Of a stretch of DNA of 20,000 bases, positions 1-20,000 are shown piece by piece (the stretch's first letter is position 1; every line of letters starts with the position of its first letter). The DNA lies in the NCBI GenBank assembly GCA_008632985.1, contig QPGO01000048.1, forward strand, positions 491,839-511,838, written 5' to 3'. This DNA is from Psammoneis japonica (lineage: Eukaryota). A model generated the notes under the pieces. That model had not been told where the DNA came from. It worked only from the letters and a program-made list of their open reading frames with translations, and did not search any database. Made by a program: the position numbers and the translations under genes.

Positions 1-1750
1 GTGTGTCTTGTGGCACACAACTCCTGAACAAAGCATCTGCTGAACTGGCATCAAGTGATGTTTGAACAGTGCCTTTAATGATGCCACCCACCACTGACCA
101 CTGGAACAAAAAGTGCTTCTTTGTGACTGGGGTGGCTGCCAAGAAATCTCCTGTGCAGCTCTTTGATTTTGTGCCTGCTTTTCAACACCAGCTGCTCTTG
201 TTCTCAGCTCACCCTGCAGTGCCAACACTGACCTTCTCAGATGGTGTTTTGTGCTGGGTGTGTGACAAGCTAATGTTGGCCATTTCTGCAGTGCAAGAAC
301 CACATCACAGGATGACAAGCAATGTTGTCTGGCAGAAAACTGCAAGCATTGATGCCTTGTGAGCTGCAAGCTTGCTGCCCTTTGTCATGATTTTCTGCTG
401 ATTCAGCAAACGTTCCATGCAGGCTCCAGCAGCACAAATCCTGTGTGCTTCAGAAATGACCTCCAATGATTGCTTCATCAAATCTCTAAACTTCTGTCCA
501 TGCCCATCAGTGATTGTCAATGATCTTGTTTTCTTCTGTTGGCTTGTCAAGTTCTTCACTCCAAGTTGTGAAAGTGCCATTTCTGTGGTTGTGGCACTCA
601 TGACTGTCAGCTTCAGTCAACGTTTGGCATCACTTGGCTGCCATTGTCCATTTCTGTGCAAGATCCAGTGCTGTCTCTATGTGCAACACATCAACGCATT
701 TCACTTCATGACTCCCAGTCCTGAACAAACTCTCTCTTAATTGCTGGCACATCAAGCTTGCTGCTCTGTGTGGCAAACTTTCTGCTGTTGCCACAGCACC
801 CAAAAGTGTGAAGTTGAGTCTCTCCTTGCCAAAAGCAAGCTGGTGCTGTGGAAGCCACACTTCTGTCTTAGAACTCATGCTGCTCTTAAACCAAGTTCTG
901 AGTGTGACTTTTCTTTGCCATTTGGGCATGGCTGCCATGGTTTCAGTCCCAAAGAAAGCAACAACTCCTGCTTTGTGCCATTTTGTTGTTGCCATCAGGT
1001 GCTGCCACAAGGTGGCATCAACCTTGGCCAGCCCTTGCATCCTTCTGCTGCACACTCCTGTGTGCTGGAAGTGCAGGTCAACCATGTCAGCCTTGCTGGC
1101 AAATGGCACAATGACAGCACTCAAAGCTGGATTTGAGGTTGTCAAGTTTGTGCCTCCAGCTTGGCCAGATTGTGGCCTTCTCAAATGGTCTGACAAACAG
1201 CTCCACCTTGGTGTGCATGGCTGCTTGGTTGCTCTCTTCGTAGAAGGCTTGTGTGCAGGTGGGGATTGAAGTCTTGCACTCACAAGAATGGTTGCTTTTT
1301 TGTTTTGGCACCTTTGCAGATGCTGACAACTTGCACCTTGATGACAGGCCATGGACCTTTCAGATGGGGTGGTCTTTGCTTGGAATGCCTTGCCAGCTTT
1401 ACACTGCTCATTTGTGTTGCCAAGGCATCTTTGTTCATGCTCTTGAAGATCTCAACTTAAATTGGCTGATTGGCAGCACACTGGCCCAGTGGTGCCTTGT
1501 CACACTGGTTGGAATTTGTTGCCACGGCACAGTGTGGCACCAACTTGGTCTGTCCTTGGTGTTTGATGCAGGTGGGGCTGAGAGCACTTGGTGGTGCAGC
1601 CATGTGCTTTTCTCAGCAGCCCATGGGTGCAGGCCAGCCAGTTGAATCTTGATGATCTTGTTCTCAAAACTGTGAGCACTCATCCACATGGGACTCATGT
1701 CTGGCCACTTCCAACATTTGTTGGTGTACTCTGCAACTCTCTCCTGCAAG
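1..1750. other. Degenerate block depleted of both CpG and TpA; probable hypermutated repeat/TE remnant, family not identifiable
   Basis: By-eye count in 1-600: about 3 TA and 1 CG. TG/CA is very abundant. Overlapping ORFs are Cys/His/Gln/Trp-rich, nearly Tyr-free and have no recognisable domain. Composition returns to normal between ~1750 and 2060. Confidence 0.6.
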
Positions 1751-2146
1751 CTTGCTTCGCGTCGTTTGGAGCCACTTTGTTCAATCATGCACACATCATT
1801 GCCGTCGTCGACTTTTCGCATGCGTCGAGCCACCAGGGCGCTCACCAAGCTTGTGTGGCTGTGCCCTCTCTCTACGGTATACTTAAGAGCAGGAGAGAGT
1901 CAATCCAGCTGCGACAGATTCTGGTGTCTATCCTGCTGCAGAGAGAAGAAGGAGCGAGCATATGGTGTTCAATACAGTATAGCGACACACAATCGACCTT
2001 CACTGAGCTTTCTATGGACCTTAGAGCTCTACTTGTTCAGTGTTTCCCGCTGCCATTGTTTTAAAATTGAAGGAGGCTTTGCCGTCACACATTTGACATG
2101 TAGCCAAGTGCATAAGGTCTATTCAGCACCGCGTGTTGCGCAAGTC

Positions 2147-2814
2147 TTAGAGGGGCTCATTAGACGCGACCCACATGCGTTCCTTTGTCGTTGTTGTGTC
2201 CTGTTGCTCGCCGAGCTCAACGGCTTTGACAATGTCGTTCTTAATTGCTTCAATTAGTTTGTCGATGCCTTCGAAAGGGAGCTCTGGACGGAGATAACCC
2301 ACCACCGACAAGCGAATCGGCTCGCCATAAAACTCCCGCAACACAGTCTCACCGCAGCTTGACAAGTGCCGTCTGCTATCTTGGTCAGAAGCGATCAAAT
2401 GAGGCTCAACAGTTTTTTCCTTGTTGCCATATGTAGGGTTATATCCAATCGAAATCGCCGCCTTGAACACTCGACAGGCATCCTCGTCTTCTTTGCTGCT
2501 ACTTGGGTCGCCGATCCGAGCAAACCCCCAATAGATGCCGCACGGTAGCTCACCAAAGTTCACGCCGTGATATGAACCAGAATCACGAGAAAGGTTCGCT
2601 GTTGGAACTGTGCAGTTCAAAAGTCATCAGAATTTTACGTTACATTACAGTTGGGGGTAGAGAGACGCCAACGAATATGTGACTTACTGCCTAAATCGGA
2701 GCTTCCCCTTCCGAATCCTCGTACAACAGTGCTTGTCATTCTTATGGGCAACTGCGAGTTTGCGATCCCATCTCCGTTGATGGCGCCATTTTCTCGGGTC
2801 ATTTCGCTCTTCAT
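2147..2814 (-). CDS. RFK: Riboflavin kinase (2 exons: 2814-2688, 2607-2147; ~195 aa)
   Basis: Splicing the GT-AG intron 2687-2608 gives VVRGFGRGSSDLGIPTANL. Also present are AAISIGYNPTYGN, TVEPHLI and GYLRPELPF, all hallmark flavokinase motifs. Confidence 0.93.
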
Positions 2815-3186
2815 AGTCGTCTTTCTTGGCAACCAACAGCAACCGGTTGGGCAACCGTGATGGCTTACTGTACCTACTTCTCTCGAAGCTGTTGCAACAC
2901 GAAACGCGATCTTGAAGCAGGGCGCAGTTGGCAGATGGCATGATAATGGATGATGGCAGCGCAACCTGCGCGCGCACCGAAACCACTCATAGCACACGAC
3001 ACAACACCCAACACACCATCTACTCTCTCTAGAGAGCTACAGTAGCTACCGTACTAGATATCACTACTTCTATCACTCGACAAGCTTGCAGTTTATTCAG
3101 TTATCGCTTTGAGTTTGCGGGGGATCACCATCTTTAATCTATAGCGTGAACCTACCGTATTCACACAGAGAAATTCCCCTAGTAAA

Positions 3187-4365
3187 ATGGAATTGAATCC
3201 TTGTCGAACTGTTGTTACGAATTTCGCGTCTCGTTCCTCACCTCATACAGCTTCCGCTTTAACGAATGAGGACAGTGATGTGTATGAAAAGGGTGTGTGG
3301 GTGCTCTTTGTCGCTGCCAACTCTTTCAGCCAAAGTAGAAAATGGATAAGTGCCGCTTTAAGTAGTGGTGACATTTGTACGTACGATCAGGAGCGGCTGC
3401 AGCAGATCCATTCAAAAGCGTGCGCACATGGTGACGCCAGTGTCACCGATTTAACAGTCGGCGGCGAAAATTTGCTAGCGAGTTCTGGAAAAGATGGAAG
3501 TGTATGCCTATTTGACATTCGGCAGCCATCAGTTGCCCTCCAGTTTCATCTGACCCGTTCTGAGGAAGCTCTGTCTGTCAGTATCGGATATGATGGTGCA
3601 TTGGCAGCTGTGGGAGGGAGTAGGGCGAAGATCCATTTCTTTGATCTACGACAAGGGGGGAGTCTATTGGGTTCCTACGTAGATTGCCACACTGAAGAAG
3701 TAACGAGGGTTAGATTTCAACCGAATCCTGAAAATGAATGCACCACTACGCCAACGCTGGTTTCCGCATCAGAAGATGGATTGGCGTGCGTTTTCGACAC
3801 CAGTCAGCCGTCAGAGGATGCTGCATTGACGTCTGTTTTGAATATTCAAACGCCTCTACGTGACATTGGTTTCTTTGGCCCTTCGTATGAAGGATTGTAT
3901 TGCTTAACCGGCAGCGAAACAATGAGCATATGGCACCACAACTCAGCACAGCGCATATGCGATTTTGGAATGGACTTGCGGTCGAAGCTTTCGCGGGCTG
4001 CTGGAGGCTTAAACATTGACTACCTCGTTGGCTGCAGTTGGGACTCCAAGTTGAGCAGACTATCACTATTGTCAGGTAACTCCAATGGTGGGGCCGCTCT
4101 TTTCATGGTGGATGCCAAATCCATCACGTTGGACCATTTACTTTGTGGTGGACACAAAGGCTGTGTCCGAAGTTGGTGCGCCCTTTCACAGACGTCATTT
4201 GTAACAGGTGGAGAAGACGCGCGTCTGTGTGAATGGAATCGATCAAACAGCGGAGACTCGTCTTCAACTATGGCGGTTACCAGGAACTGTGTGAAAACGC
4301 CAGCTGTGACAAGAGGTATCCCCAGTCGACGAGAGAGGAAGAAACAGACAATGGCACCTTATTAG
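3187..4365 (+). CDS. WDR89: WD40-repeat protein, WDR89-like (392 aa, intronless)
   Basis: WD repeats (LASSGKDGSVCLFD, HTEEVTRVRF, LVSASEDGLACVFD, GHKGCVRS, FVTGGEDARLCEW) and a basic C-terminal tail ending in APY, as in WDR89 orthologues. Confidence 0.8.
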   Translation: MELNPCRTVVTNFASRSSPHTASALTNEDSDVYEKGVWVLFVAANSFSQSRKWISAALSSGDICTYDQERLQQIHSKACAHGDASVTDLTVGGENLLASSGKDGSVCLFDIRQPSVALQFHLTRSEEALSVSIGYDGALAAVGGSRAKIHFFDLRQGGSLLGSYVDCHTEEVTRVRFQPNPENECTTTPTLVSASEDGLACVFDTSQPSEDAALTSVLNIQTPLRDIGFFGPSYEGLYCLTGSETMSIWHHNSAQRICDFGMDLRSKLSRAAGGLNIDYLVGCSWDSKLSRLSLLSGNSNGGAALFMVDAKSITLDHLLCGGHKGCVRSWCALSQTSFVTGGEDARLCEWNRSNSGDSSSTMAVTRNCVKTPAVTRGIPSRRERKKQTMAPY

Positions 4366-4959
4366 GTCTCCGACAGGTCATTGCTATTGCAGTAGAAGCG
4401 AGACGTTTCTTCGTCACTCTTTATTTCCTTCATTGTCTTTCAGCATACCTTGAGCAAAAGATAGACAAGGAACATGGTGGAATTCGAAGTTCGGGGTGCA
4501 GAAAGAACTGGGAAAACACCGCCTACAGATTATGCGTGATTTAGTCATCGGTGTTTTGACACGACCTTCATGCGAAAAGTCCTAGGGCCCTACTTTAGCT
4601 TTAACCCAAGCTCCAAATAGCCGTAACCAGCCTTACACTAGTTCATCACCGTTTGCTGGCAAGTAAAGAAGAAGAGACAGAAGTTGCTCTGGCGCTCACT
4701 TGGAAGGAAGCACCCAGAGCCTCATGCCTTTTTGGTTTTGTCGACGGCACAGGGGAAAAAGTAAGGATGCGGAACACGATAACTTTTGAATTTCTCATTC
4801 CGAGTTTTTGCGGCCTTACCTGAAGCAGCCGCTAATCACATCGCAAAGACCAGATGCAGTCCCCAGGAAGGACACGTCTGGAACCATCCCATTTAGGCGC
4901 ATTGTATGAAATATCAGGTTGATCTGTCGTAGAATTGACAGATGGCTTTTTGCGAGGGC

Positions 4960-5349
4960 GGCTTTGTTGATTGCACTTGTGCTTCCATTTGAGCACACAT
5001 GCCTTGAACAGGGAAGGTGTCGGGAACACAGTCACCACAGCAAAAGCACCCTCCTCCAAAATGCCTGCTTTGCTGAAGAAAAGATGAGGAAACAATGTTG
5101 AGAGCACAAGAAATGACACTTTCGGCCCCATTGCTCAAGAAAAGCATGCCCAATGCAGCCATTGACAACATTGCACCATCCACCAGAGTTGGGGTGCACA
5201 TTAAAAAAACCACTCGCAACTCTGAAGGCAAGGGCACTGGTGGAAATTTTTTCACAAGTGCCGTGGACTTCAGCCTTGGCTCCACCAGGAAACAACTCTG
5301 ACAAGCAACACAGTGGCAATTGTCTTGTCAACATCCTGTCAAGCATGAC

Positions 5350-5382
<33 letters not shown>

Positions 5383-7860
5383 TCAAAGCATTGCTCAAGC
5401 ACAGGAAGGAGTTGGCTTGGGGTCAATTGCTTGTCACTCCAGCACAGCACATTGTTGCATCTGTCCACACATTGCCAGAGACGAGCTGTCTGCTTTTCCA
5501 CTGGCATCTTGCCAAAAATCTTCTGGCTTGGCCATCTTCTTTTTGGGGCAGCTCAAAAGTGACAAAGCTCAGTGCCATCCAAGCCAACATTTCCTGAGCT
5601 GCCAGTGACAGAAAGCTGCTGGGGTGCCCCTTTGACAGCCAGCACAGGGGATGCACAGTGTTTTTTTTTTCCTGGCTTTTCCATTTTCTCAGCTTGCAAT
5701 GGGGAAAGCAGCTCACAATCTAGATGGTCACTTGCCTTTCCTCATGCTGCTCCACTTGTTTGGGAAGTCTTGCCCCAAGTTTGTGCAGTGTTGTCAGATG
5801 TGTGCTCGCAGGGTCAGCTGTGGCATGTGCTGTGTCACAGCAGCAGTGGAGCAGCATTGCTGATGATGAGACTGTTGTCCAGGCTCATGGGAGCTTTGCT
5901 GTGCATTTTCACAGGGGCGCGCCAATCAACCATGGCAAAGTGTTGTGCTTTCTTCAGGGTTTTTGTTGTCAAGTGATGCAATGCCAGTGAAGCTCCATCT
6001 AGAGCCATGAGCCATTTGGCAAACATTGACCAAGTCATGATCTTGTTGACTTGCATGTCTCATGCAGTGCACCTCATCACATGCCTCAAATTTTAGTTGG
6101 ATTTTTAATTGCAGTTGCTGCACTCAAAGTCTGTGCCACCAGGAAAATGAATGAAGGGCACCTGCTTTGCATGGAGGCATGCACATGAGAGAATCCACAC
6201 AGCCAAAGCAGGGCTGCATGGGGCTGATGACAACCACACTGTCCAGAGGCTTGAGATGGAAAAGACATGGTGGGGAGCACAGCACTTTCTAAAAAGGGAG
6301 CCAGCATGTTTGCACCACAGAAACAAGTGCAATTGTTTGCTGTGCTGCTCTGATGTTGTCACACAACAGCACCCAAATTGCAGCAGAGCCCACCACTCAA
6401 CACAGCATGCAGACATCATCCTGGAGCACAAGCACATGAGTGTGATCATGCTCATGACCAGTTGAAATTCAGCAAAAATTTGGGTGTCACAAAAGGCGCA
6501 AAAGATGCAAATGAGGCAGTGACCATGGCATGGTAAATGTTTTCTCTTTCTCAAAAGCTGTGAACCAAGGTGGAGTTCTGCCAGGCATCATGTTGCTCTT
6601 GAGCAACAACAAGGGCCACGTGAAGGTGCAGCACTTTGCTGTGGTTGACCGACACTCTGTGAAAATGTGCAGCAAAAAGCTGCCAGTGGTTGCCAGTGAT
6701 TTTTACATCCACAGAGTCAAACTAGCACCCCACCTCTTTTCCTTGTTGTTCAAACACACTGGGCAGCCATGTGTGCACACATGCAGCCACCTGCATGATG
6801 CGCACACATGCGCGCAGCACACATGCTGCATGAGAAGGGGGCAGGGCACAGAGCACACACCTCTCCTCTTGGACTCATCAATTTCATGGACTGCCAGTGT
6901 CCAAGTTTGCCAGAGAGACAACATGATTGCCAGGGCTCCCACAGGTGTGGGAACTCACACAGCTGGGGTGTGGTGACCATGTCTCTTGTGTGCACAATGC
7001 GCTGCACAAACCCACAAACCAGGGCTCCCTTTTTCAGGCTGCAGGTGCTTTGGCTGTCATTGTGGTTGGCTGATGTTTGCCCAATCCAGTTGTTTTGATC
7101 TTTGAGTGCACACTTTCATGTGGTGCCACAATGTGTAATGATCAAGAATGAGTTTGGATGTTTCCATTTCTTCTCCCCCCCCCCCAGGTTGCTTGTTCCC
7201 TTTGTTGCTGGTTGTTCATTGTCCACAACCCAGCCAAAATGCTGTGGAGCTTGTTTGCAAAACTTTGTGGCCCATTGTCACATGGATTCTCACCCCACCC
7301 CTCAGAGCTGGAGCATGCAGAGATCACCACTTGAAGTGCTGCTGTGTGTGAGACATCACATGATGTTGCTGGTTGGTGAGAGCAGCAGAGTGATCCCTGT
7401 TGTTTGGCGCCATTCTGACAGAAAGCAAAAGTGGTTGTGACAAGCTCTGCCTGCCAATTTGTGTCCATGTTCCCAATCTTGTTGGATCTTGCATCATCAA
7501 CAAAGAGGGCAGGGCATTGTTGCAAAGTTGTGTGCTCACAGATTCAGGCAAAAAGATGGCGGGTCAGTCGGGGCAGCTCTGTTCTTGCTGCATCAGGAAG
7601 AAAGAGATTCTCAGCTTCCTGCACCCACCTTTCTTGTGCTGTGGGCTCTCTCTGCTCCACTGCCTTGCTGTTTGTAACACACTCCAGTGCGGGCAGTTTT
7701 GCGCCAGCAGAGAGTGAGCATTGGCCAGCTCCTTGGCTGTTCATTTGGCTGTCCGCAGGCGCTTCTTTTGAAAAGCTGAAACCTTCTTCCCACCCATTTG
7801 ACTTGGATGGCAGCAAGTTGCCAATTGGACAAGGGACACTTTGTTGGCTGGCTGTGTGGG
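4960..7860. other. Second degenerate block depleted of CpG and TpA; probable hypermutated repeat/TE remnant(s)
   Basis: Same TG/CA-rich, TA- and CG-poor composition as 1-1750. Many short overlapping ORFs with no credible protein. No terminal repeats could be found by eye; boundaries are approximate. Confidence 0.6.
5354..5379 (+). repeat. (AG)13 microsatellite
   Basis: Perfect dinucleotide run read directly from the sequence. Confidence 0.95.
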
Positions 7861-8027
7861 AATGTACTTCTACGCAAGAGGCTCTCAGGGCAGATCACCG
7901 GACCGCTTGACCGCAGTGCGTGGGCCCCGTGGCCACAAAATGTCTACTACCGTACAGCCACCCATCATTCCTGTCCGTCCAACAGCGCTGACACAGACAG
8001 ATGGACAGACTTCCAGTGTCCTTGCGT

Positions 8028-8040
8028 GCGCGCGCGCGCG
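8028..8040. repeat. (GC)6G alternating tract upstream of the kinase gene
   Basis: gcgcgcgcgcgcg, about 110 bp upstream of the ATG at 8150. Confidence 0.85.
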
Positions 8041-8149
8041 TCCTCTCCATTGCCACTTCGAAGCGCCAAAGCCGCAGTCATGGCAATGGCAAGCGACCGG
8101 CTCCCGGCATTAACCGCTGACAACTGAGATCTCATTGGCGGTCATTTCA

Positions 8150-9600
8150 ATGAACGAAGCAGTAGATTATGAGGAAGAGAGCATTGTCCGTACGGTTTCT
8201 CCATCTGTTCTGCGGGAAACTGCAGCTGAAGTATTTGAAGAAGCTGCGGCACACAACTCAGTCTTCAACATCGATGCGGAAGAGAGATTGCCGCGCTTTG
8301 AGAAATCCGAAATAAAATGCGGACGTGTTCTTGGTGAGGGTGGTTTCTGCGAAGTTCGAGAAATAAAAGCCTTTGATCTAGAGTTTGCGCCTCATAAGAT
8401 GGCTTCTCGTCGTCAGAACTCGTTGAAGTCCAGTCAGAAGACTGAGGAAGCATCAACGATTTCGTCACCAGATTCTCGAGAGAAATTGTTTTGGAGCAAG
8501 AACGGAAAGGGTAAATCTCATTATTGCGTGAAGATGCTATCGGCTTATGCGGGTGAAAGCCGGAAGAGAAGCGCGGAAATTGTCAAAGCAATCGTTGATC
8601 TAGCGTTGGAGGCAAAGTTTCTGGCAGCACTGGACCATCCCCACATTATTAAGTTGGCTGGAACGTCTCGTGTTTCTCCTTTCGAGACTGGATACTTCTT
8701 GGTGTTGGAAATGTTGCCTGAAACGCTCGACACAAGAAGAAGAAAATGGGTCGTGATCGACGGACAATGTAAAGGCGTGACTGGAGCCCTGACGGGTGGC
8801 AAACGAAAGAAGTTTGCTTTTTACCGTGAGCGCTTACAGGTCGCTCATGACATTGCTAACGCAATGGGATACATGCATGGAATGAATATAGTTTATCGTG
8901 ATTTGGTGAGTGAGCCACGTATTCGCGGGCTTGTCCATTATCTTATCTGCACTAACGGTTGTCATTTCAATCGTCACTTTTCACGATGAAGAAACCAAGC
9001 AATATTGGTTTTGATAGACATCGTGTTGTAAAGCTGTTTGACCTAGGTAAGCACTCTGTGACTGCATTGACTGGGTCTGTTTGCTTCGTGACTCCAGAAA
9101 TGGAGGACCTATGGATAATGGTACTCTTGTACGCTACAACCTGTCTGTTGATACTGTATTTCCATTTTCGATGTGCTTGTGGTGACCTAGGTTTGGCAAA
9201 GCAACTTCGCGAGGACGAGAAAGAAGACGATGGCACTTACAGAATGACCGCAATGACTGGGTCCATTCGCTACATGGCTCCAGAGGTTGGAAGACCTGTC
9301 AACAAGGGTACTCTTGCGAACTACAACCTGTCGGTTGATGTATATTCATTTTCTATGTGCTTGTGGTTCATTATGTCGTTGGAGCCGCCATTTAGTCTTT
9401 GGAGCAGTCACACCATTGTCACCAAAGTGTTTCAAGAGGGAAAACGCCCTGTGACGCTCGCGATATGGTCAGATGGGTTGAAAAATTTGATGAGAAAATG
9501 CTGGAAGGAAAAGCCAACAAGTAGACCTAGTTTTGAGCGCGTCCAAGAAATGATCCTCGATGAAATTAGCATCGTTGAGTCAACAACAAAGGCAAAATGA
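8150..9600 (+). CDS. Protein kinase, probably TKL-like family common in diatoms (3 exons: 8150-8905, 8992-9046, 9191-9600; ~406 aa)
   Basis: Motifs LGEGGFCEV, YCVK, EAKFLAALDHPHIIK, YRDL|KPSNIGFD, KLFDL|GLAK, TGSIRYMAPE and DVYSF. Two GT-AG introns restore the frame (1221 nt spliced). Confidence 0.9.
9047..9190 (+). other. Kinase intron 2 (144 bp), a decayed duplicate of downstream exon sequence 9244-9367
   Basis: gtaagc...cctag boundaries. TGACCTAG|GT occurs at both junctions. Roughly 75-80% identity by eye to exon 3. Confidence 0.85.
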
Positions 9601-9680
9601 AGCACAGGCTTAGTAGACATATATTATAGAGACGAAGATTTTTCTACTCCATGGATTGCCAGATCTTCAATTTGTCGCAA

Positions 9681-10825
9681 TCAAGAACTTCGAATCGTAA
9701 GAGACGAAGCTCCACCCGACTGCCCGCCACGGCCCTGACCGACCCGCGGTACGTACTTTGTATCTGCAATCTCGCATCGATAGAACGAGACGGTGCTCGT
9801 TGAGTTAACGTCTGCCACCTGAAAGAGTTGAGATAAAGAAAAAAAATGAAAAGACGGATTCAAAATTCCCCGAAACTTCCACGTCGACAGCATGTGTTGC
9901 TACTTGTAGGAATAAAATGACGTACCGCTCCGATTTTTCCATTTCCAACATTTCCAGTCCAGAAGATGTCTTCAAATGAAGCTTCGGCACCGTCGTGGTA
10001 GAAGGTCAGAGATGCGGTGTGCGCCCCTTTGAACGTAATACCGCGTACCAGAACATTCTTGGCGTGGGGACCAAACGCAAGATGTGTCCCCCGTACATCC
10101 ACAACACAGTACTCGCATTCGATAAGAATGTTTTCTGCGTTGACATAAATAGGCCCCTTGCCCTTCAGTGTGGCTCCAGAGCATATCGTTAGCACCACAT
10201 CTTCTTCATAATAGAAAGAGCTATCCGAGAGGGCTCCATTCTGGCCTACGGCAAATGAAGAATAGTGCTCATTCCATCGCAAAAACCTTTCGGCACTCAA
10301 AGCATTTGCCTCTTGCACGGCTGCCTTTAGCGTGGCCCAGTCAGAGAACCCCATGGTAACACCGTCTTTGCACAACGTCGGATGAACAGTACGTTTCCTA
10401 AGCTCGACGTCCACGTTTTTTGGCGCATTCTCACTTTCTTGAATTACAGGCAAAGTTTCATGGTCAGATCCCTGTAGAAGCACATTTCCAGACATTATAT
10501 CATCGTCTAAAGTAGTGACACGGCGGGCGTTGACAACGAGGTCATCATTCGAGACCTGAAGATTCTTTTTCAGTGAAATGAAAGAATGCCTGGCGAACAT
10601 AGCACCAAATGCAACCACACCAATCGTGAAAATACCAAGTATCATCTTTGAACTTCTCAATATTGTCAGAATGCTTTGACTCTCTTTCATATCGTTTGGG
10701 CTCGCGGCATGCGCCTGCGCGTCCATCTTGAGCTTCGGGTGTTGTTGTTTGTGCGCAGGTTGCTGCTGGCTCTTGCGGCTTGACGACTGAGACTGCTGCC
10801 CTTTATGCTTCTTGTGACCACCCAT
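9681..10825 (-). CDS. Hypothetical type-II membrane protein with a possible beta-helix-like C-terminal domain (2 exons: 10825-9926, 9818-9681; ~345 aa)
   Basis: Long ORF with a basic/Gln-rich N-terminus, one hydrophobic segment (MILGIFTIGVVAFGAMFA) and a beta-rich C-terminal region. GT-AG intron 9925-9819 has a strong pyrimidine tract and keeps the frame. The fold assignment is a guess. Confidence 0.7.
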
Positions 10826-11307
10826 CTTGAAAGTGTTCCTTGATTTTGAAAGAGAGGAGTGCTACGTAACGTTCGTTTCAACTTTCAACCCGTCCCAAGA
10901 GTAAGTTGTAAGATAGTTACCGGTGCGTGCATGCAAAAAACAAAAACAACACTCGACACTCGAGCCTCGAACGTGTTGTTTCACGGACGGTAAGGCAGAC
11001 GCACCACTGACAAAGGTCTTATCTAGCTAGAAGTATCTTACCGTACTTGCTTGGTTATGCCTACGGTATCTTGCCTTTTGCTGCTACTCATACATTTTAG
11101 CTACTAAGTAGAGGTACCGGTAGAATAAAAGTCTCTCTAGAGCGAGTATGTAGGCCTTTCTAGCTATGTAGCTAGAGGCTCTCTAAAGAGAGCTAGTAGG
11201 CCTAGACTGACAGCTGGATGGCTAGTTCTACAATTGGTGTGGTTTGGGGACACGTAGAATGCGTCGAAATGCTCAGCAGTCCAAAGAACAGAGAAAGAGC
11301 GCTTAAA

Positions 11308-12844
11308 CTACGCGTCATTGAAAACAAAGTTTGGCATTTGTCTCTCTACGCCCTCTCGGAAATACGCATGATTCAGTGCTTCCTCGGCAGATATACGCTC
11401 TGCTGGGTTCAATGTTAACAACTTTGACAACAGGTCGAATCCATTGCTGTCCAAAAATGATTGCCCTCCTGACGGGGAGTTGACAGGAAACTTAACGGGC
11501 AACAAAGGCTTTTCTTTAGTACTTTTCCATCGGAAAATTCCTGCATTTGGTAAGTTCGAATAGCCTGGCCAATTCTCTTCTGTGGGAGCTCCCATAAATC
11601 GAAATATTTTGTCGATTTGGTCGAGCTCACCTTGTCCTTGAATCATAGCTTCTTTGGTGATGAGCTCGCCAAAGATGCAACCAATACTATATTCGACGTG
11701 AAAAACAAACGAACAAAGAAATTAACGGAGTCGTCAACAGCTGCTGTACCGTAACCACATCTAACGTGTGCTTCAACGCTTATCCGTGCTTACCTCCACA
11801 TATCAACTTCGGGTCCATAAACGCGCTCGCCGAACAGAAGCTCCGGTGGACGGTACCACAGAGTAATCACCATTTGCGTAAGTGCCTTCAAAGGACGTTG
11901 GTATTTACGTGCCAGACCAAAGTCACAAAGTGCGATGCGGCCACTCTACAGTAGTGACGGTAGTGGAAAGCAAAAGAGAAACAAACTCCACGTAAGGAAC
12001 AATCAATGTGCAGCATTCAGCGATTCTTCCCATTTCAAAGCTCCATCGAACTTACACTGTGAACAAGAATGTTTGATGTCTTTTGATCTCTATGTATATA
12101 CCATCTGGAATGTATATGGTTGGTCGCTGAAAGAATCTGGTGCAACATGCTTTTCAATTCCGACTGTGGAAAAGGACCATCGGTTCGCTTCATCGCCTCT
12201 TGCAAATCCATTTCCATGAACTGGAAGAGAAATACCAAAATCGCAATACAAGAACGAGCAATGAATTTCGAGTCATGAGAATTTCCATCATCGATTCGAA
12301 ACCACTGAGTTGGAAGAAAAGCTTCGCCTCACCTCCATGACCATGAATACTTTATCAACGCTTTTTCCGACAACCATTTCCCGCACGGTTACGATACACT
12401 CGTGACTTAGAGCTAATAGTACACTGATTTCTCTCAACGCAGTAACCGGAAAGCCTTCTTTCGTCATTTCTGAATCAAACTTGATTTGTTTTAGCGCAAC
12501 GATCTCATTTGTTGCTACGGCACAGTATGGGATTGTTTTGTAAGAAAATGAATGATCAGGCAGATTAAGAAGCAATCGACCAAACGGGCTGGTGACTCAC
12601 CTAGATCACGAGCTTTCCACACGATGCCATAGGTACCCTCATCTAACCGTGCTAAGCGTTCATAACAGTCATACACCGATCGACATCCCTGAATTAAAGG
12701 ATTATGCTTCGGCAAGTGCACCGACGTTGAAATTTCCGTGGTAGCGTTTGGTTTTTTCTGAGTAGCACTTTTCAACACAATGGACGCTTTGTTTCTCTTT
12801 TTGTCCTCTTCGTCTGAGGAAGATTCCCATCGATCTCGCTTCAT
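11308..12844 (-). CDS. CDK11: Cyclin-dependent kinase, CDK10/11 (PITSLRE)/plant CDKG type (5 exons: 12844-12601, 12514-12333, 12220-12056, 11945-11794, 11686-11308; ~373 aa)
   Basis: Motifs GCRSV, LDEGTYGIVWKARD, VALKQIK, EGFPVTALRE, HRDQKTSN, CDFGLAR, VITLWYRPPELLFG and DMWSIGCIFGE. Four GT-AG introns give an intact 1122-nt CDS. Confidence 0.9.
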
Positions 12845-13212
12845 TGTCAATTGCCATTGCAAGGGGTACAAAGAGTACAAAGATGTAAAAGAATAGTGTG
12901 CGACGCGACGAGTAGTGACGATGGACGCAGACAGACTAACTGGCTCATCGAACGCGCGAGCGAGCGACGAGCGACACGCTAGGTCTAGCACGCCCAATTC
13001 GATCGCACTTCGCACTCGTCACTCGTCAAACTTACACTTCTCGCAAGAATCGGCACAAGAGGAGGAGCAAAAGGACTAACGTGGTTTACTCGATTGCTTC
13101 TAGTAGTTACAACCCAAGCTTTCAAGAGCCACAACAAAGGAAGGCAAGAGGAGGGACAGAAAAGGTGTCAAGTAGCAGAGACAGAGTGGCAAAGAAAGAC
13201 ACTTCTTTCAGC

Positions 13213-14238
13213 ATGGACGCCTCGTTCCTACCGTATCGCCGTGCATCTTCGTACCTTGTGGAAAAACTGAGCGCGAAAGGCATCGAACACCCGTCAATCG
13301 GAATAATTTGTGGGTCGGGGTTGTCTGGCTTGTCAGAGGCTCTCGAGGGCGAAACTCTTTCTGTGAAGTACAGCGAGTTACCAGGATTCCCTGCTTCTTG
13401 CACGGTGGCTGGGCATCGTGGAGAGGTCGTTTTTGGGTTGCTAAGCGGTGTTCATACAATGTGCTTTCGTGGCAGGTTTCATTCCTATGAGGGACACGAT
13501 ATGTCGACGGTTGCGCTGCCAGTGCGGGTGATGAGGTGTTTGGGAGTGAAAGTGGTTATCGTGACAAACGCTGCGGGTGGGCTCAACCCTGAATATCGTG
13601 TTGGAGATGTCATAACAGTTACTGATCATATGGGATTACCTCTATTGGCGGGGAAGAATCCATTGCTTGGGCCCAATGATGACGAGTTAGGTCCTCGCTT
13701 TCCTCCTACAAGCAATGCCTATCCGATCATCCTTCGGGAGATAACCGCCCAGGCGGCAAAGCAACTAGACATGGACTTTGTTAGGCCAGAAGGAACGTAT
13801 TGCTTTGTTTCAGGGCCAAATTACGAAAGCAAGGCTGAATGTCGCTTTCTGAGAAATGTGGGAGGAGATGCTGTTGGCATGTCAACCGTACCAGAAATAG
13901 TTGCTGCCCATCATGCGGGGATGAAGGTTTTGTGTCTGTCTCTTATTACCAACAAAGTGATCATTTCAGGCGACGAGGGTCCCGATGCAAGTCATGCAGA
14001 AGTTTTAGAAGCTGTGCAAAAACGATCTGTTCAGATGCAGTCACTTGTTAAAAGCATTGTATCGCTTCTTCATCACGACGTTCTTGCATCGCTGCCAGAA
14101 CTTCCGCCTGTAAGCCTCAGCACCAAACCTGCTCAAGGATCGGGGGCGAAGTCGATATGTTACGCTTTGTCAGCGAGTGCGTTGCTTGCGGTAGGCTTGT
14201 TAATTGGTACACGAGGTGTGCGAAGATCAAAAAAGTAA
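13213..14238 (+). CDS. PNP: Purine nucleoside phosphorylase (trimeric inosine/guanosine type) with a C-terminal hydrophobic tail (~341 aa)
   Basis: Motifs IGIICGSGL, GRFHSYEG, VTNAAGGLN, GPNYE, DAVGMSTVPE, LITNK and SHAEV. First in-frame ATG is at 13213. Confidence 0.95.
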   Translation: MDASFLPYRRASSYLVEKLSAKGIEHPSIGIICGSGLSGLSEALEGETLSVKYSELPGFPASCTVAGHRGEVVFGLLSGVHTMCFRGRFHSYEGHDMSTVALPVRVMRCLGVKVVIVTNAAGGLNPEYRVGDVITVTDHMGLPLLAGKNPLLGPNDDELGPRFPPTSNAYPIILREITAQAAKQLDMDFVRPEGTYCFVSGPNYESKAECRFLRNVGGDAVGMSTVPEIVAAHHAGMKVLCLSLITNKVIISGDEGPDASHAEVLEAVQKRSVQMQSLVKSIVSLLHHDVLASLPELPPVSLSTKPAQGSGAKSICYALSASALLAVGLLIGTRGVRRSKK

Positions 14239-14314
14239 AGCAAAAATCACAGTACTTTGAGACAATTAGAAGTACCCAAGCAACTTGTTGCGTTCTTTGT
14301 CATGGATACTTATA

Positions 14315-15553
14315 TTATGCGCGTATTTCACTATGGATACCCCGTTTCTCTTTGACTTCGGTAGCTGCTTGTCGTATTCTCTTCATCGTATCTGCATTCC
14401 AGGGAGGCAAGTGTTCGTGTTCGCAAACGACAGCCCCAATAGCAGAAGCGATGCAACCAGCATCGACGAGAGGGACTCCTGCGCCAATGCAGGTCGTCAT
14501 GGCTGCAGAGTAGGCGTTCCCAGCCCCCGTAGGATTCACGGGACTACCATCGCAAGTATGAAGCTCGGCAGCTGGGATGAGGGATTTGGTTTCTGAGCCC
14601 CGTTCCCTAATAAAGCTACCTCTCGGACCATCTCTCACCGCTACATCCCATTTTCTCCAATAGGTTTTATCAAACGCCCTGTAAAGGTGCATATCCGGTG
14701 AAATGACGTCAAACACGGTACTTATTCCATCTAGGCGAGAAGAGCATGATTCTGAATCTCTTTCAGACATGTTACCAGTTGCGGCGTCCGGAAAAGCAAT
14801 CGGTTCTATTCCTATAACCTTCGCCTTCTCTGTCAAAGATCCATCTCTAAGTAGCATGCTGTCCTGCCCAGCACCTGGTGAGTCCGCGCCAACCTCTATG
14901 ATCAAATGCAAGGTAGAGAGAGTTTCCTCTTCTCGTAAACATTTTAAAACATCCGCAGCAGATGGACGATTCCTCCACAACCCCCCAGCGCCTTCTGGTC
15001 CAAAACTATCGTTCAGGGGCATCCACTGGACATTTTGGTCTGAATCATGCCACAATTGGATGCGAGGTGTACGATATGCTGGTCCTTCAAGGACTTGTAA
15101 CGAATCAACCATAGGGTCCAACAGCTCATGCAGCGCATTGTTTTCACGTTCAGACCAATCAAGTTTTCCGACTGGGCCAAGAAATGTAACTGGCTGGGGC
15201 AGAGGATCATCTTTTGAGTCGTTATCAAGTACCGCCAGCGCAGCTGCAGCTCCAAACGCTGCCTGAGGCCCACCACCTCCAATCGATAGTCTTCCGTCAG
15301 ACGGGCTTTCTAGCTCCTTTCGGTAGTCATCAATTATAATTTTTCCTGCATAACGACGAAGGTGAAGCGTCTTATGATGAAGCAGAAGAAAGCGTACAAC
15401 TTAAAATGGACAACGGAAGATCAACAGTCTCTCCTTACCGATAACAACTACCCGTTGCTTTGAGATTGCCCTGTTTGGGATAGAAAGCGATTTGGCATAC
15501 TGAAGTGCGACAAGGACCAGCGACACAAAGAGCCACTTGCATCTTGCATTCAT
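14315..15553 (-). CDS. PfkB/ribokinase-family protein with GAGN motif (Mak32-like) and a probable signal peptide (2 exons: 15553-15439, 15345-14315; ~381 aa)
   Basis: Splicing intron 15438-15346 gives RVVVIGKIIIDD...IGGGGPQAA. Also DVISPD, VRDGPRGS and VNPTGAGNAYSAA. Confidence 0.85.
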
Positions 15554-15775
15554 TTTTATTTCCGACTGCGGCAATGCAGGAAAACACGGTGATGGACGAC
15601 ACTTTAACAACAATAGTCCACCACAAATTATGCGAAAAACAGACTCGATATCGCCCATACAAATCGGAAAGCAACCGCAACTCAAAGTCGCTCTTCGTCC
15701 TGTTTCTTATTGTCGTCATCGCACATCGGCACGCACTTGATTAATAAGAATTAGATATTTATGGGGTCGGTAGTT

Positions 15776-15930
15776 GCGGCTATCGCCGCTTTTCTCGTTT
15801 ATCCTCGGCGGCGATCTTCAAGCTAGTGTAAATCTAAAGGCCAGTGATCCAAGGTAGGAGTGGAGTGGGCTTTACTAGCACACGAACTTTCCTTCTCCAA
15901 ACAAAAAACCCAGGTTGGACGGCAAGGGCC
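15776..15930 (-). repeat. Split direct repeat B2 (155 bp), the 3' terminus of the element
   Basis: Matches 16098-16252 with 2 mismatches. Confidence 0.95.
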
Positions 15931-16097
15931 AGAGGGCGGGAGAGGTGGGAGCGTTTTAATCTATCTACGGGCCGGCTTGCTGTTGTTGTTTCCAAAAGAA
16001 TGAGAGGAAACAAAGCAGCCGGTGAGAGAGGCGGCCAGGAAGTTCGGGAACTTTCAAATGGAACGGGGAATCTCGCCTTGCGGATTGCTCGAGGACA
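15931..16097 (-). repeat. Putative A2 segment between B1 and B2
   Basis: Assigned from its position in the known A1-ORFs-B1-A2-B2 Ngaro layout. The A1 partner is not in the window. Confidence 0.6.
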
Positions 16098-16252
16098 GCG
16101 GCTATCACCGCTTTTCTCGTTTATCCTCGGCGGCGATCTTCAAGCTAGTGTAAATCTAAAGGCCAGTGATCCAAGGTAGGAGTGGAGTGGGCTTTACTAG
16201 CACACGAACTTTCCTTCTCCAAACAAAAAACCCAGGCTGGACGGCAAGGGCC
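16098..16252 (-). repeat. Split direct repeat B1 (155 bp)
   Basis: Matches 15776-15930 with 2 mismatches. Confidence 0.95.
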
Positions 16253-16352
16253 TCCAGCCACCTCCAAATGCATTGCATGAGCTGCGCAGGGCGCAGTGGA
16301 GGCTGTGATAAATTGGGTGGGAGAGGTGGGATCGTCTGGCGGGCTGTGGCGG

Positions 16353-17524
16353 TCAAGGCATGGCAGGAGCAATGGGAACGTCGGCATTCGGATGGAGGAC
16401 GAAGTGGCCACCGGCGAGCATGCGTTGGGCGAAATTGCGCATGACAGGCTCCGCTTGTAGATGGAGGTGTCGGAGCATTTCGTCGGACCGCCATCGGCCC
16501 AAGAGACGAATTGTGTCCGTGTCGACTTGGGCACACAGCAATCCCATGGCACCCGTGGCTCGAAGGCAGCGCGCGGAGACATCGGAGGGAAGGAATCCGA
16601 GATTCTGTGGACCAAGTGCAGTGACGGCAGTGCGGAGGATGGACGTGATGTCAGTGGGCTGACTCGGTGCCAGCGTCCGTTGCAGAAGTAGACTGACAAA
16701 GGTGTGTCAGGCAAAGCGCCAAAGGCGCGCAAGTGAAGCATTCGGCGTACGGCAGCTTTGACGGGGCAGAGTTGCGGGTGGCCGGAGAGGCCAAGGCCGA
16801 CAACTTCGCCACGAACTCCATTCTTTTGCGCAGTGAAGGTGAGCGTGGTGAAGGTTGCAGCGGCGAGCTGCGCGTCTGGGGCATGGAAGACATCCAAACA
16901 GATGCCACCAGTGGAGAGGCGTGCGTCGGCGAGCCAAAAAGGAGCAGTCTCCGAAGGGGTGGCTGTGCATTCACCAGGACGCAAGAGAAAGAAAAAGGCA
17001 AGGGCGATCATGTCAGCGACAGCATGGGTGCCGGGGTGCTGACTGGTGGCAGCAGCAGCCAAGATCCAATGGAGTGCGGCCACGGGGACAGGTTTTACAC
17101 GGTCGGTGGGTGGATCCTGCTTCTTGCAGTGACGGATCTGGCGGGTGAGACGGAAATCCAAGCCGCCTTGGAGGGTGAGCCGTGGGTCCGGGGCCCCCAT
17201 TGCAGCGAACGTTTGGCCAACCGACCGCAGGGCATCTTCAGCGGTGCGTGCACGGACGGGATTGCCACGTGGGGCGAGGACTCCGACTCAACATCGGTGG
17301 AGGAAGACTTGGAGGAATAAGATGGGGTCTTCGACTTCGACAAGGAGTGGATCGACGGCCAGTGTGTGGCAGAAATTGGCCCAGAGGTTCCAATGGGTGT
17401 CGGCGGCGGAGGCTCGTGAAGGGGCAACTGCAAGGGCAATGGCTCTCTGCGCAGCACCGAGGTCACGAAGGAAATCAGCTTTCGTGGCGGGGTCCACAAG
17501 CGCCAAGGTTTGGTCTGCGGGCAA
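16353..17524 (-). pseudogene. Tyrosine recombinase ORF of the retroelement, disrupted
   Basis: Motifs AFFFLLRPGE, QKNGVRGE, LCPVKA, SARCLRATGA and IRLLGRWRSDEMLRHLH. Lesions: in-frame TGA at 17288-17290, a frameshift near 16657, and the catalytic Tyr position reads CAC (16467-16469). Confidence 0.9.
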
Positions 17525-20000
17525 TGGGCATTAAAATGGTGCAAAAATTCCGTGTTAGTCAGGGATTGTAAACGGGAAGCATTGTCAGCGGCGGTGTTGA
17601 GGGTGCCTTGTAGGAAGTCGTGAATGGTGACGTGACGATGGAATCGTTGATGGCAAGCTTGGCAGCGATGGAACTCGGCACGAAGCTTGGAGGCAGTGGA
17701 GGAACCTTTGCGTTGCCAGAACAAAGTGCCCAAACTGTCAGTGCGCTGAAGGTTGGTGTGCTCCCGCAGGTCGAAACATTCGGATGCAGCGTGTGTGTGG
17801 ACGATGCTGCCCACGAGTTCAAGGTCGGTGTTGGTGATCGGGCCGTGAGGATTCTCGCAGGTGGCGAGGTCCTGGGTGACCTGGTTTGGGAAAGGCATGC
17901 GCCAAACAACGGGACCGGGGTTGGTTTGAATGCGGCGGCATCCGTGTGGACTAAATTTTAGTTTGGTGGCGCGTGGGACGGAGGCTGCGGTGGGTAAGAT
18001 GATGCTGCCGGCGCCATGACCGGCCGCATCATGGCAACCATGGACACTCGGGTCCAAGGGGACAAGTTCTTGAATGCGCACCGGGCGTTGTTCGACGCAT
18101 GCGTGTAGATCTCTGAAGTCGTCCATGATGGAATGGAAGGCCGGGCCGNNNNNNNNNNNNNNNNNNNNNNNNNNNNNNNNNNNNNNNNNNNNNNNNNNNN
18201 NNNNNNNNNNNNNNNNNNNNNNNNNNNNNNNNNNNNNNNNNNNNNNNNNNNNNNNNNNNNNNNNNNNNNNNNNNNNNNNNNNNNNNNNNNNNNNNNNNNN
18301 NNNNNNNNNNNNNNNNNNNNNNNNNNNNNNNNNNNNNNNNNNNNNNNNNNNNNNNNNNNNNNNNNNNNNNNNNNNNNNNNNNNNNNNNNNNNNNNNNNNN
18401 NNNNNNNNNNNNNNNNNNNNNNNNNNNNNNNNNNNNNNNNNNNNNNNNNNNNNNNNNNNNNNNNNNNNNNNNNNNNNNNNNNNNNNNNNNNNNNNNNNNN
18501 NNNNNNNNNNNNNNNNNNNNNNNNNNNNNNNNNNNNNNNNNNNNNNNNNNNNNNNNNNNNNNNNNNNNNNNNNNNNNNNNNNNNNNNNNNNNNNNNNNNN
18601 NNNNNNNNNNNNNNNNNNNNNNNNNNNNNNNNNNNNNNNNNNNNNNNNNNNNNNNNNNNNNNNNNNNNNNNNNNNNNNNNNNNNNNNNNNNNNNNNNNNN
18701 NNNNNNNNNNNNNNNNNNNNNNNNNNNNNNNNNNNNNNNNNNNNNNNNNNNNNNNNNNNNNNNNNNNNNNNNNNNNNNNNNNNNNNNNNNNNNNNNNNNN
18801 NNNNNNNNNNNNNNNNNNNNNNNNNNNNNNNNNNNNNNNNNNNNNNNNNNNNNNNNNNNNNNNNNNNNNNNNNNNNNNNNNNNNNNNNNNNNNNNNNNNN
18901 NNNNNNNNNNNNNNNNNNNNNNNNNNNNNNGAACCCATCGGACATGTCTATTTTCATGAGGTAGACCCGTCCTTTGGCGGGATTGGCAAGGAGAATGCGA
19001 CGCAAGAGTCGATCGAGCGCGCGTCCAAATTGCACAGCCTCGACCGGTGCGTCAGGCTGTGTGGCGTCGTTGGTGCCAAAATGCGTGTGGTCGACAATTG
19101 GCCGAGGCCGTCGACTGTGTTGTGGGACCACGCCAATGGGGCTAATGCGGAGGCCCGACAGTTGTCGGACTTCCTCGTACGGGACCACGACCCAGAAACC
19201 CTTGTCCACACAGTCGGACACATCTTCTCGTAAAAACTCGATGTGTTCGTAGGCGGACTTGTGGGGGCCCCTGTCGACACTAGCGTCGAGTTCCTCAGAG
19301 CTCCATGGTGCGTCGGCAACGGTGATGGGGACTCCGTGATGCTGGCAGTGGCGAAGGATCCGGCGTGCCGGATGATTCTGAATGCGGCGCATCGGGCCCA
19401 AGTCACCTCGTCCACGACGTTGACGCAACAAATGGCTGAGACCGTGCTGACGCAAAATTTTAGCATCGCGTGTGATGCTCTTGCCCAATTTGTCAGTTTC
19501 AACTGATGCAGCAATCGCCTGTCCACGGAGCGTGGGGCGGCGTTGCTGTTGACTAAACTGTGCCGCCTGCGGGGGTGGCGGAGGAATTGGCACCAGGTTC
19601 ACAGTCCCCGAACTGGAACCATTGCCGACGACCCATTCGGTCGTCCAATGCTCGGCCGCCCATTCGTAGAGGGTGTTTTGCTCTTCCTTGGAGTGGCCGG
19701 TCCGATGGTCATGACTGCTGCCACAATTCGTGTTGCATTGGCCTTTAATGTGGCAGGGCAGGCAACGTACCCGGCCTTGAGCATCGAGGGGGAGAGCAAT
19801 GTTGTTTTCGTTGCACCGGAGCTTAACGTCACGCGATCGTACATTGGGGCGAGCACGGATCTCGTCGAAGTGGGCATCGTACTCTGGGTTACGCTGGAGG
19901 GTGTTTGCGCCCGGTGTCTCTCTGGATTGCGCTGCGGGTGCTGAGGCTGGAGCTGGTGCTGGCGTGTTTGTATTCGCGGGCCGATGAGAAGCGGGACGAA
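17095..20000 (-). pseudogene. gag C-terminus plus RT/RNase H reading frame of the retroelement, interrupted by an assembly gap
   Basis: CLPCHIKGQCNTNCGSSHDH zinc finger (19705-19764). RT motifs LRISPIGVVPQ..RRPRPIVD, QFGRAL and KIDMSDGF. RNase H acidic motifs HDAAG, TDLEL, TDS and ADNASR. The 3' end overlaps the YR ORF by ~430 nt. Confidence 0.85.
18149..18930. other. Assembly gap (782 N) covering the RT catalytic core
   Basis: Run of N. Confidence 1.

Follow-up and report, generated by a model that had tools for sequence, protein, structure and literature searches.

Evidence for a TpA-specific mutational footprint in a Ngaro-type tyrosine-recombinase retrotransposon

The near absence of the dinucleotide TA from a retrotransposon that still looks recognisable raises the question as to whether such a deficit is native to the element or has been left by a mutator acting on it. 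The element lies in a 20,000-nucleotide (nt) stretch of DNA (contig QPGO01000048.1, positions 491,839 to 511,838; the whole stretch is referred to here as the window), where it extends on the minus strand from 15776 to beyond 20000 and is a Ngaro-type retrotransposon carrying a tyrosine-recombinase (YR) gene. The original prediction for this locus was that a genome-defence mutator converts TpA to TpG or CpA on both strands of repeats, in a manner for which no description was known. Our analysis supports a mutational footprint of TpA to TpG and TpA to CpA transitions that is specific to TA, affects both strands and falls in all codon phases. A description of the same spectrum does exist, in a preprint on Bigelowiella natans (Mettrop et al. 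2026, bioRxiv 10.64898/2026.01.13.699255), and we put a probability of roughly 0.8 on the footprint in the element being the product of long-term TpA-specific hypermutation of silenced foreign DNA, as in the B. natans lines.

The TA deficit in the element interior is real. The four TA that had been counted by eye between 16321 and 17100 are exact, compared with 29.2 predicted from base composition and 33.5 at the TA rate of host-like DNA in the window (Poisson P = 1.7e-10), and the abundance of CpG remarked on at the same time is also borne out, with 63 CG in this interval for 42.7 expected, so that CpG is undiminished. Over 16253-18149 the observed/expected ratios (o/e) are 0.18 for TA, 0.93 for CG, 1.35 for TG and 1.45 for CA, and over 18932-20000 they are 0.38 for TA and 1.08 for CG, with TG and CA each at 1.2-1.45 across the element interior. 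Host-like DNA of the window (1800-4990 and 7800-16200) has a TA o/e of 0.63, a CG o/e of 0.91-0.98 and a GC content of 0.48 vs 0.59 in the element. A contig assembled from an independent sequencing run (X1) covers 16223-16695 and differs from the window in only 3 letters and 1 gap; since it reads the same bases, the TA-poor sequence is not an assembly artefact.

As a family norm we used 80 loci of relatives at the DNA level and 50 intact YR open reading frames (ORFs). TA o/e in the 80 loci ranges from 0.38 to 0.88 with a median of 0.64, and the element, at 0.25, lies below all of them; the YR gene of the window has a TA o/e of 0.11, and the intact ORFs go no lower than 0.31 (median 0.56). For TG and CA together the element has 1.33 and the relatives 1.13, and for CG 0.98 and 0.93 respectively. 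By codon phase the YR ORF of the window contains 0, 5 and 0 TA in 390 codons (0/1.3/0 per 100), compared with medians of 2.1/2.9/3.3 per 100 codons in the relatives. The ratio of window to relatives in this ORF is 0.15 for TA, 0.97 for TT, 0.78 for AT and 0.68 for AA. Two circumstances that the original prediction had named as damaging to it, intact relatives that natively carry His or Cys and are poor in TpA, and a change of A/T to G/C independent of context, are therefore not what is found, the window being below all 80 loci and all 50 ORFs and TT standing at 0.97 beside TA at 0.15.

The same specificity is apparent at the protein level. Taking as conserved those Tyr columns with Tyr in at least 60% of relatives, the window keeps Tyr at only 2 of 11, the others having been replaced by five Cys, three His and one Phe, while non-Tyr residues persist in 397 of the 467 columns they occupy (Fisher p = 2.5e-6 vs Tyr). 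Codons for Phe, Lys and Asn are A/T-rich but lack TA, and these residues are kept at 19 of 20, 10 of 11 and 7 of 8 columns (together 36 of 39), therefore the change is not a context-free shift from AT to GC. Five Tyr are replaced in the YR gene, among them the putative catalytic Tyr; replacements in the pol-like ORF are found at 17632-17634 (His), 17614-17616 (Phe), 17521-17523 (Cys) and 17227-17229 (Cys), and in 18932-20000 at 19345-19347 (Cys) and 19087-19089 (His). Nine residues had been cited in the original prediction as former Tyr, and alignment supports six of these as replacements: MLR-H-LH (16467-16469, CAC), LRPGE-C-T (16967-16969, TGC) and HR-C (17291-17293, TGT), at each of which relatives have Tyr; R-HC-KKQDPP (17126-17131), where relatives read YY; and IVD-H-T and FNAH-C-PQ, with Tyr in 32/35 and 31/35 relatives respectively. 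The remaining three fared less well. G-C-HDA is a native Cys, present in 5 of the 10 closest relatives shown with Tyr in one, RFHR-H-V is ambiguous in that 23/35 relatives have Tyr but the closest ones have His, and no relative aligns at CLP-C-H, which resembles a Cys-rich knuckle.

Conversion of TA to TG or CA never creates a stop codon, therefore reading frames are not interrupted even though any Tyr codon may be hit, and the still recognisable look of the element follows from frames being left open as Tyr is erased. The sole stop in the YR frame is of the CGA to TGA kind. Strand order was also informative, with no runs of TG or CA along the element (z -0.5 to 0.2) and with Cys and His outcomes intermixed, even in adjacent codons (17126-17131), as the both-strand action originally proposed would have it.

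Among relatives, the recombinase P0077 (73% identical) is altered at the same Tyr sites with a different outcome, reading HCHYC where the window reads -CCYH. With 0.5% Tyr, 4.1% His and 2.3% Cys it shows the sole such syndrome among the 120 relatives listed, and probably represents a further hypermutated copy, in this host or one related to it. The relative locus poorest in TA and CG was considered as one more such copy and rejected, as its Tyr residues are retained. Comparison of the window with other copies of the element gave 283 differences, of which 40 were listed; all nine within-element differences among those listed sit in pyrimidine-purine (YpR) steps, including three TG/CA doublets, two cases of CG vs CA/TG, and site 17689, where the window has TG and another copy has TA.

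The footprint stops at the element's own terminal repeats. The original prediction had set the start of the element at 16253, the inner edge of the TA-poor zone, but the B1-A2-B2 repeats place its end at 15776. Across 15776-16252, with its 19 TAs, TA o/e is 0.71, which is normal for the family, and reaches 0.88 in each B copy, while in the 478 nt following 16252 it is 0.16; the last regular TA is at 16198 and the next are at 16309 and 16458. In intact relatives repeats and interior differ in TA by at most 1.8-fold. The terminal repeats are also the sole part of the element with cover in a second run (X2), which is labelled 'DNA?' and whose RNA-like nature we infer from contigs that skip an 80-nt GT..AG segment. 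The intervals without X2 cover are 1-1815, 4841-7865 and 16336-18149, which hints at silence of these regions.

Two of those intervals correspond to a pair of blocks, A and B, that are nearly free of both TA and CG. Block A looks non-coding and has 11 TA for 75.6 expected and 6 CG for 96.3, with o/e of 1.90 for TG and 1.94 for CA; Block B has 11 TA for 119.9 expected and 22 CG for 152.6, with TG+CA o/e of about 1.8-2.0. The edges of Block B are approximate, the last flanking TA and CG being at 4930 and 4959 and CG returning from 7690 and TA from 7865. Both blocks are sharp-edged and essentially single-copy when matches from 80% likeness upwards are counted (depth 57-117); X2 lacks them, and their CpG o/e is 0.06-0.13. 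Block B itself has an X1 depth of 57-82, compared with about 59 for single-copy DNA, and an X2 depth of 0. A TG+CA o/e near 2.0 is the outcome if every CG and TA became TG or CA. The B. natans preprint delimits TpA-poor clusters by a Rho for TpA of at most 0.43 and a Rho for CpA+TpG of at least 1.52 (10.64898/2026.01.13.699255). Blocks A and B pass both thresholds, and the TpA threshold is reached by Block A (0.10), Block B (0.06) and the element (0.18 and 0.38), whose CpA+TpG of 1.27-1.40 is above that of 78 of the 80 loci of relatives. Since the single-copy blocks are saturated and the repeated termini untouched, the process is not repeat-induced in the sense of fungal repeat-induced point mutation (RIP), and the claim that repeats as such are targeted is not supported: single-copy DNA is equally or more depleted, and the element's multi-copy terminal repeats are spared.

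The blocks gave few clues as to what they once were. No Pfam match below E = 0.005, and none near cut-off, was found for 21 ORFs of Blocks A and B, a 273-aa ORF in Block A had no relative among 1.84 billion representatives, and an ordinary repeat search of the two blocks returned nothing longer than 25 nt. We also used BLAST on purine/pyrimidine-coded sequence, since transitions leave that code unchanged; comparison of the blocks with the element and the 80 loci gave nothing above shuffled controls, while in a positive control the element aligned with its relatives over 1.7 kb. This coding alone reveals an inverted pair in Block B (5894-6010 and 6558-6677); between its arms there are 37 transitions, seven TG/CA doublets among them, and 5 transversions, a count that is supportive only as the scoring favoured transitions. 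Surviving CpGs of Block B cluster in GCGC, with 10 GCGC among its 22 CG (e.g. 5917-5924 and 6799-6818). Assembly and X1 disagree more often in the TA-poor blocks, at 5 positions in 1803 nt and 10 in 2288 nt, than in most host DNA, with none in 5292, 1368 and 550 nt but 8 in 3363 nt (1805-5167); one of the single-copy differences is a TG to CA doublet at 6437/6438.

In Blocks A and B the TAs that survive favour a pyrimidine before and a purine after (Y-TA-R, that is TTAA, CTAG and CTAA/TTAG), with 14 of 22 in this context vs 20% of host TAs (p = 8e-6), and the reverse context R-TA-Y accounts for 1 of 22 vs 26%. In the element 10 of 31 surviving TAs are Y-TA-R vs 19% in relatives (p = 0.05). One-sided flank rules, a pyrimidine after the A or a purine before the T, were tried and rejected, as Tyr codons in Y-TA-Y context gave Cys at four sites and His at two, and we claim a statistical bias only.

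The coordinates of the element and the blocks are collected in Table 1.

Table 1 Features of the window discussed in the text
Feature	Position	Strand	Remarks
Block A	1..1757		Non-coding-looking, nearly free of TA and CG; runs off window start
Block B	~4960..7860		Single-copy, nearly free of TA and CG; edges approximate
Terminal split direct repeat B1-A2-B2	15776..16252	-	B2 15776-15930, A2 15931-16097, B1 16098-16252
3' untranslated stretch and YR ORF stop codon	16253..16355	-	Inner edge of TA-poor zone; stop 16353-16355
Tyrosine-recombinase (YR) gene remnant	16356..17530	-	375 relatives
C-terminal half of pol-like ORF, past reverse transcriptase core	17098..18149	-	Alignment with 35 relatives
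Assembly gap, 782 N	18150..18931		Hides reverse transcriptase core
N-terminal part of long ORF: Cys/His knuckle region and reverse transcriptase start	18932..20000	-	Runs off window

Elements of the Ngaro superfamily (DIRS order) have a reverse transcriptase (RT), a tyrosine recombinase in place of a DDE integrase, and split direct repeats in the arrangement A1-[ORFs]-B1A2B2; an RNase H domain is among the superfamily criteria, and a Dam-like methyltransferase domain marks DIRS and not Ngaro (PMC8547959, PMC3783388). The long minus-strand ORF of the window has 62 relatives, the best 59% identical, and RVT_1 is matched in 8/8 close relatives scanned (E 1.6e-7 to 4e-4, with one match clearing the Pfam threshold); the pieces of the window flanking the N gap gave no Pfam match, the RT core lying inside the gap. 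The YR gene follows directly after the pol ORF, with its best relatives at 73-74% identity. PF00589 (Phage_integrase) matches the YR relatives weakly, in 11 of 38 members, and a sequence profile of the YR family found 0 matches in PDB. A structure model of the family, with a predicted local distance difference test (pLDDT) score of 84, matches Cre, Xer and integrases (32 chains at E of 1e-3 or less), the best being Cre recombinase (E 3.2e-6). No Dam-like methyltransferase domain was matched at E of 0.01 or less in 8 relatives, nor was RNase H matched by Pfam at the same level in 8 relatives, for which no fold-based search was made. The two 155-nt B repeats are 99% identical direct repeats spaced by 322 nt with 167 nt between them, and the B1-A2-B2 half is read from 16252 to 15776, A1 lying beyond the window; the same layout after the YR gene was present in 3/8 relatives examined.

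The element is present in many copies, with a summed contig depth of 310-858 compared with about 59 for single-copy DNA, spread over 297 contig pieces. The single-copy contig of X1 ends at 15805, and the summed depth over 15731-16335 is 707 vs about 59. The copy in the window is dead because the putative catalytic Tyr of GRWRSDEMLR-Y-LH, near-invariant in relatives, has become His and an in-frame TGA stands at 17288-17290 where relatives carry Arg, in addition to a frame change near 16658. Behind 16658 an X1 contig carries an additional base (depth 179 of 214) that would undo this frame change; either this copy alone has the shift or the assembly is wrong there.

How could such a footprint arise? 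In the B. natans mutation-accumulation lines the preprint reports TpA to TpG/CpA hypermutation of foreign DNA. Two integrated viral regions took 231 of the 302 new substitutions, and 230 of these 231 were A>G or T>C, all at TpA; the rate was about 6e-7 per site per generation, and no more than 11 of the 15 lines were affected. The genome contains 324 TpA-poor coding sequences (CDS), enriched for RT and DDE domains, and 124 TpA-poor, CpA+TpG-rich clusters, and an ADAT2-like adenine deaminase is proposed by homology (10.64898/2026.01.13.699255). The interior of the dead element in the window is short of some 60-85% of its TpA, which transitions on one strand or the other have turned into TpG or CpA, and we read this as the long-term trace of a process of this kind. 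Enzymatic deamination of adenine to inosine, read as G, at TpA in chromosomal DNA is the most likely chemistry, with the ADAT2/TadA-like protein of the preprint as candidate enzyme; the process would act on chromosomal double-stranded DNA and, in the simplest reading, be directed there by a silent-chromatin or RNA-guided domain. Blocks A and B would be saturated and probably older targets from which CpG has been lost too, most simply by 5-methylcytosine deamination, with both self-complementary YpR steps ending as TG/CA. A more ambitious version, which we hold only tentatively and think doubtful, is a domain-guided two-armed editing defence that converts both TpA adenine and CpG methyl-cytosine in silenced foreign chromatin. 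Its targeting would follow chromatin or transcription state and not homology, and because of this transcribed repeats would be spared to the base (16252/16253) and single-copy DNA saturated; mature targets such as Blocks A and B would lose both self-complementary YpR dinucleotides, and the Y-TA-R bias of the survivors would reflect a recognition rule of the enzyme.

Other origins of the footprint were weighed against TpA-specific hypermutation of silenced DNA. A lineage that is intrinsically TA-poor and uses His or Cys where others use Tyr would be in keeping with a family that is GC-rich (median 0.55, up to 0.62, so that high GC is native to it) and moderately short of TA (o/e of 0.31-0.32 in two of its intact YR ORFs), and with the two cited sites that proved native or ambiguous. 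This is nevertheless extremely improbable given that the window lies outside the range of every locus and intact ORF of the family, that the copy is dead, that P0077 has opposite outcomes at the same Tyr sites and that another copy keeps TA at 17689. Equally hard to credit is a context-free pressure from AT to GC, whether GC-biased gene conversion or a general mutational bias in repeats: the higher GC of the element relative to the host, AT and AA at 22-32% under relatives, and Met kept at just 6 of 10 conserved columns all fit it, but it does not accommodate the near-normal TT, or the retention of Phe, Lys and Asn beside the loss of Tyr, and the element's GC of 0.59 is inside the family range.

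Editing before integration, by ADAR-like A-to-I change of element RNA or deamination of single-stranded cDNA fixed by reverse transcription, has in its favour that the target is a retroelement, that ADAR-type enzymes favour U before the edited A (10.64898/2026.01.13.699255) and that terminal repeats could be spared if the intermediate were only partly exposed. We consider it very unlikely, as editing of one strand predicts only Tyr to Cys or only Tyr to His where five Cys and three His are seen with TG and CA interspersed, and the hits on both strands, with adjacent Tyr codons changed to His and Cys, argue against editing of single-stranded RNA or cDNA. In addition, the same footprint occurs in single-copy blocks with no RT signal, and the mutations of the preprint arose in integrated DNA-virus sequence. 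Somewhat less improbable, though still unlikely, is a different chemistry in which T:A becomes C:G through mispairing or faulty repair of a modified base at TpA, either a thymine derivative (e.g. 5-hydroxymethyluracil or a J-like base) or N6-methyladenine. TpA is self-complementary, as expected for the site of a DNA-modifying enzyme, the outcome is symmetric on both strands, and the Y-TA-R survivors of the blocks suggest a recognition site wider than two bases; on the other side, there is no evidence of such modification in this DNA, strict one-sided flank rules failed at Tyr codons, and the preprint offers an ADAT2-like candidate, albeit by homology only.

Several points also weigh against hypermutation of the B. 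natans kind. The CpA+TpG of the element is under the 1.52 cut-off of the preprint. The evidence between copies is a sample, the 40 of 283 differences that were listed, and the counts of change between window and contigs lean in neither direction (A>G 45, T>C 49, G>A 58, C>T 40), therefore the window copy is not shown to be more mutated than its sister copies. The direction of change was polarised by protein relatives from metagenomes, 50-74% identical, and not by a consensus from the same genome. Sparing of the terminal repeats, which are multi-copy, also counts against it, the origin of Blocks A and B did not emerge from Pfam, relatives or coded BLAST searches, and their freedom from CG needs a second process besides TpA hypermutation, the B. 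natans process giving no CpG loss. The window evidence does not bear on the enzyme; this, the defence role, adenine deamination, methylation and the ages of the blocks are what we infer around a footprint that is shown together with its multi-copy setting and spared terminal repeats, and whose TA specificity and presence on both strands are shown indirectly, through the Tyr columns, the level of TA beside TT and the lack of strand runs.

The host is an intron-bearing eukaryote, because a riboflavin-kinase gene (Flavokinase match, E 1.4e-20) on the minus strand has an intron at 2608-2687, the 80 nt with GT..AG ends that an X2 contig skips. Of 14 relatives of a kinase none carried a taxon name, and a protein-atlas comparison of a WDR89-like protein gave Eukaryota only. 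TA makes up 4.2-4.3% and CA+TG 13.9% of dinucleotides in the host-like DNA of the window, compared with preprint values of 0.041 and 0.137 in the CDS of B. natans (10.64898/2026.01.13.699255), a match that is at most suggestive. A literature search on 5-methylcytosine in B. natans as host found nothing. At the other end of the scale from the depleted blocks, a TA-rich stretch between host genes (11001-11200) has 28 TA within 200 nt and numerous CTAG/TAGCTA words. Contigs of both X1 and X2 join 14472/14473 to 14876/14877 on opposite strands, which points to an inversion variant or to some 400 nt able to fold into a hairpin, and no inverted repeat of at least 30 nt was found in 14472-14877. At 12706-13310 the depth of X1 spikes to 215 vs 60, with loose ends at 13059 and 13091, suggesting a short repeated segment or an insertion polymorphism.

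The window case adds a new target class and new details to a very recently described process. The case for a TpA mutator has so far rested on one preprint, to which a full-text literature search for other descriptions of TpA-directed hypermutation added none, and the window provides independent support at the level of sequence only, adding a tyrosine-recombinase retrotransposon to the range of targets. Should the window come from elsewhere than B. natans, the system would reach beyond a single species. Handles on the mechanism are provided by the base-sharp boundary between repeat and interior, the coupling to CpG loss in the saturated blocks and the flank bias of the survivors. There is also a consequence for annotation, in that dead elements with open frames but with Tyr changed to His or Cys may be called intact genes.

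A GC-ward, TpA-specific mutator against foreign DNA would be a eukaryotic defence distinct from RIP, from CpG methylation decay and from APOBEC/ADAR. Fungal RIP converts C to T at CpA in duplicated DNA, giving an excess of TpA and creating stop codons. Like the present case it is a hypermutation by transitions at a particular dinucleotide, disabling mobile DNA and leaving blocks with sharp limits and odd composition; however RIP makes TpA from CpA whereas here TpA is destroyed and CpA/TpG enriched, RIP needs duplicated sequence whereas here single-copy blocks are affected and repeated termini spared, and RIP creates stops, which TA to TG/CA cannot. APOBEC3 and ADAR footprints in animal retroelements are likewise of deaminase type with a nearest-neighbour preference, but arise prior to integration on a single strand, of RNA or cDNA, and are strand-asymmetric (G>A or A>G), whereas in the window both strands are equally hit and DNA that is not a retroelement is in the same state. 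CpG decay through 5-methylcytosine deamination would account for the low CpG and the TG/CA excess of Blocks A and B, but it cannot remove TpA, and the retrotransposon keeps a CpG o/e of 0.98. Closest is the hypermutation of B. natans, which in the available preprint text affects only TpA, to TpG/CpA, is GC-ward, acts on both strands and in domains of foreign or silent DNA, and goes with TpA-poor, CpA+TpG-rich clusters and with an enrichment of RT-bearing CDS among TpA-poor genes. It differs in its target, a giant-virus/virophage insert there and a multi-copy Ngaro-type retrotransposon here, and in the window the footprint halts at the element's own terminal repeats, two blocks have lost CpG too and survivors show a Y-TA-R bias, while that text makes no mention of CpG, retrotransposons, tyrosine or flank context (10.64898/2026.01.13.699255).

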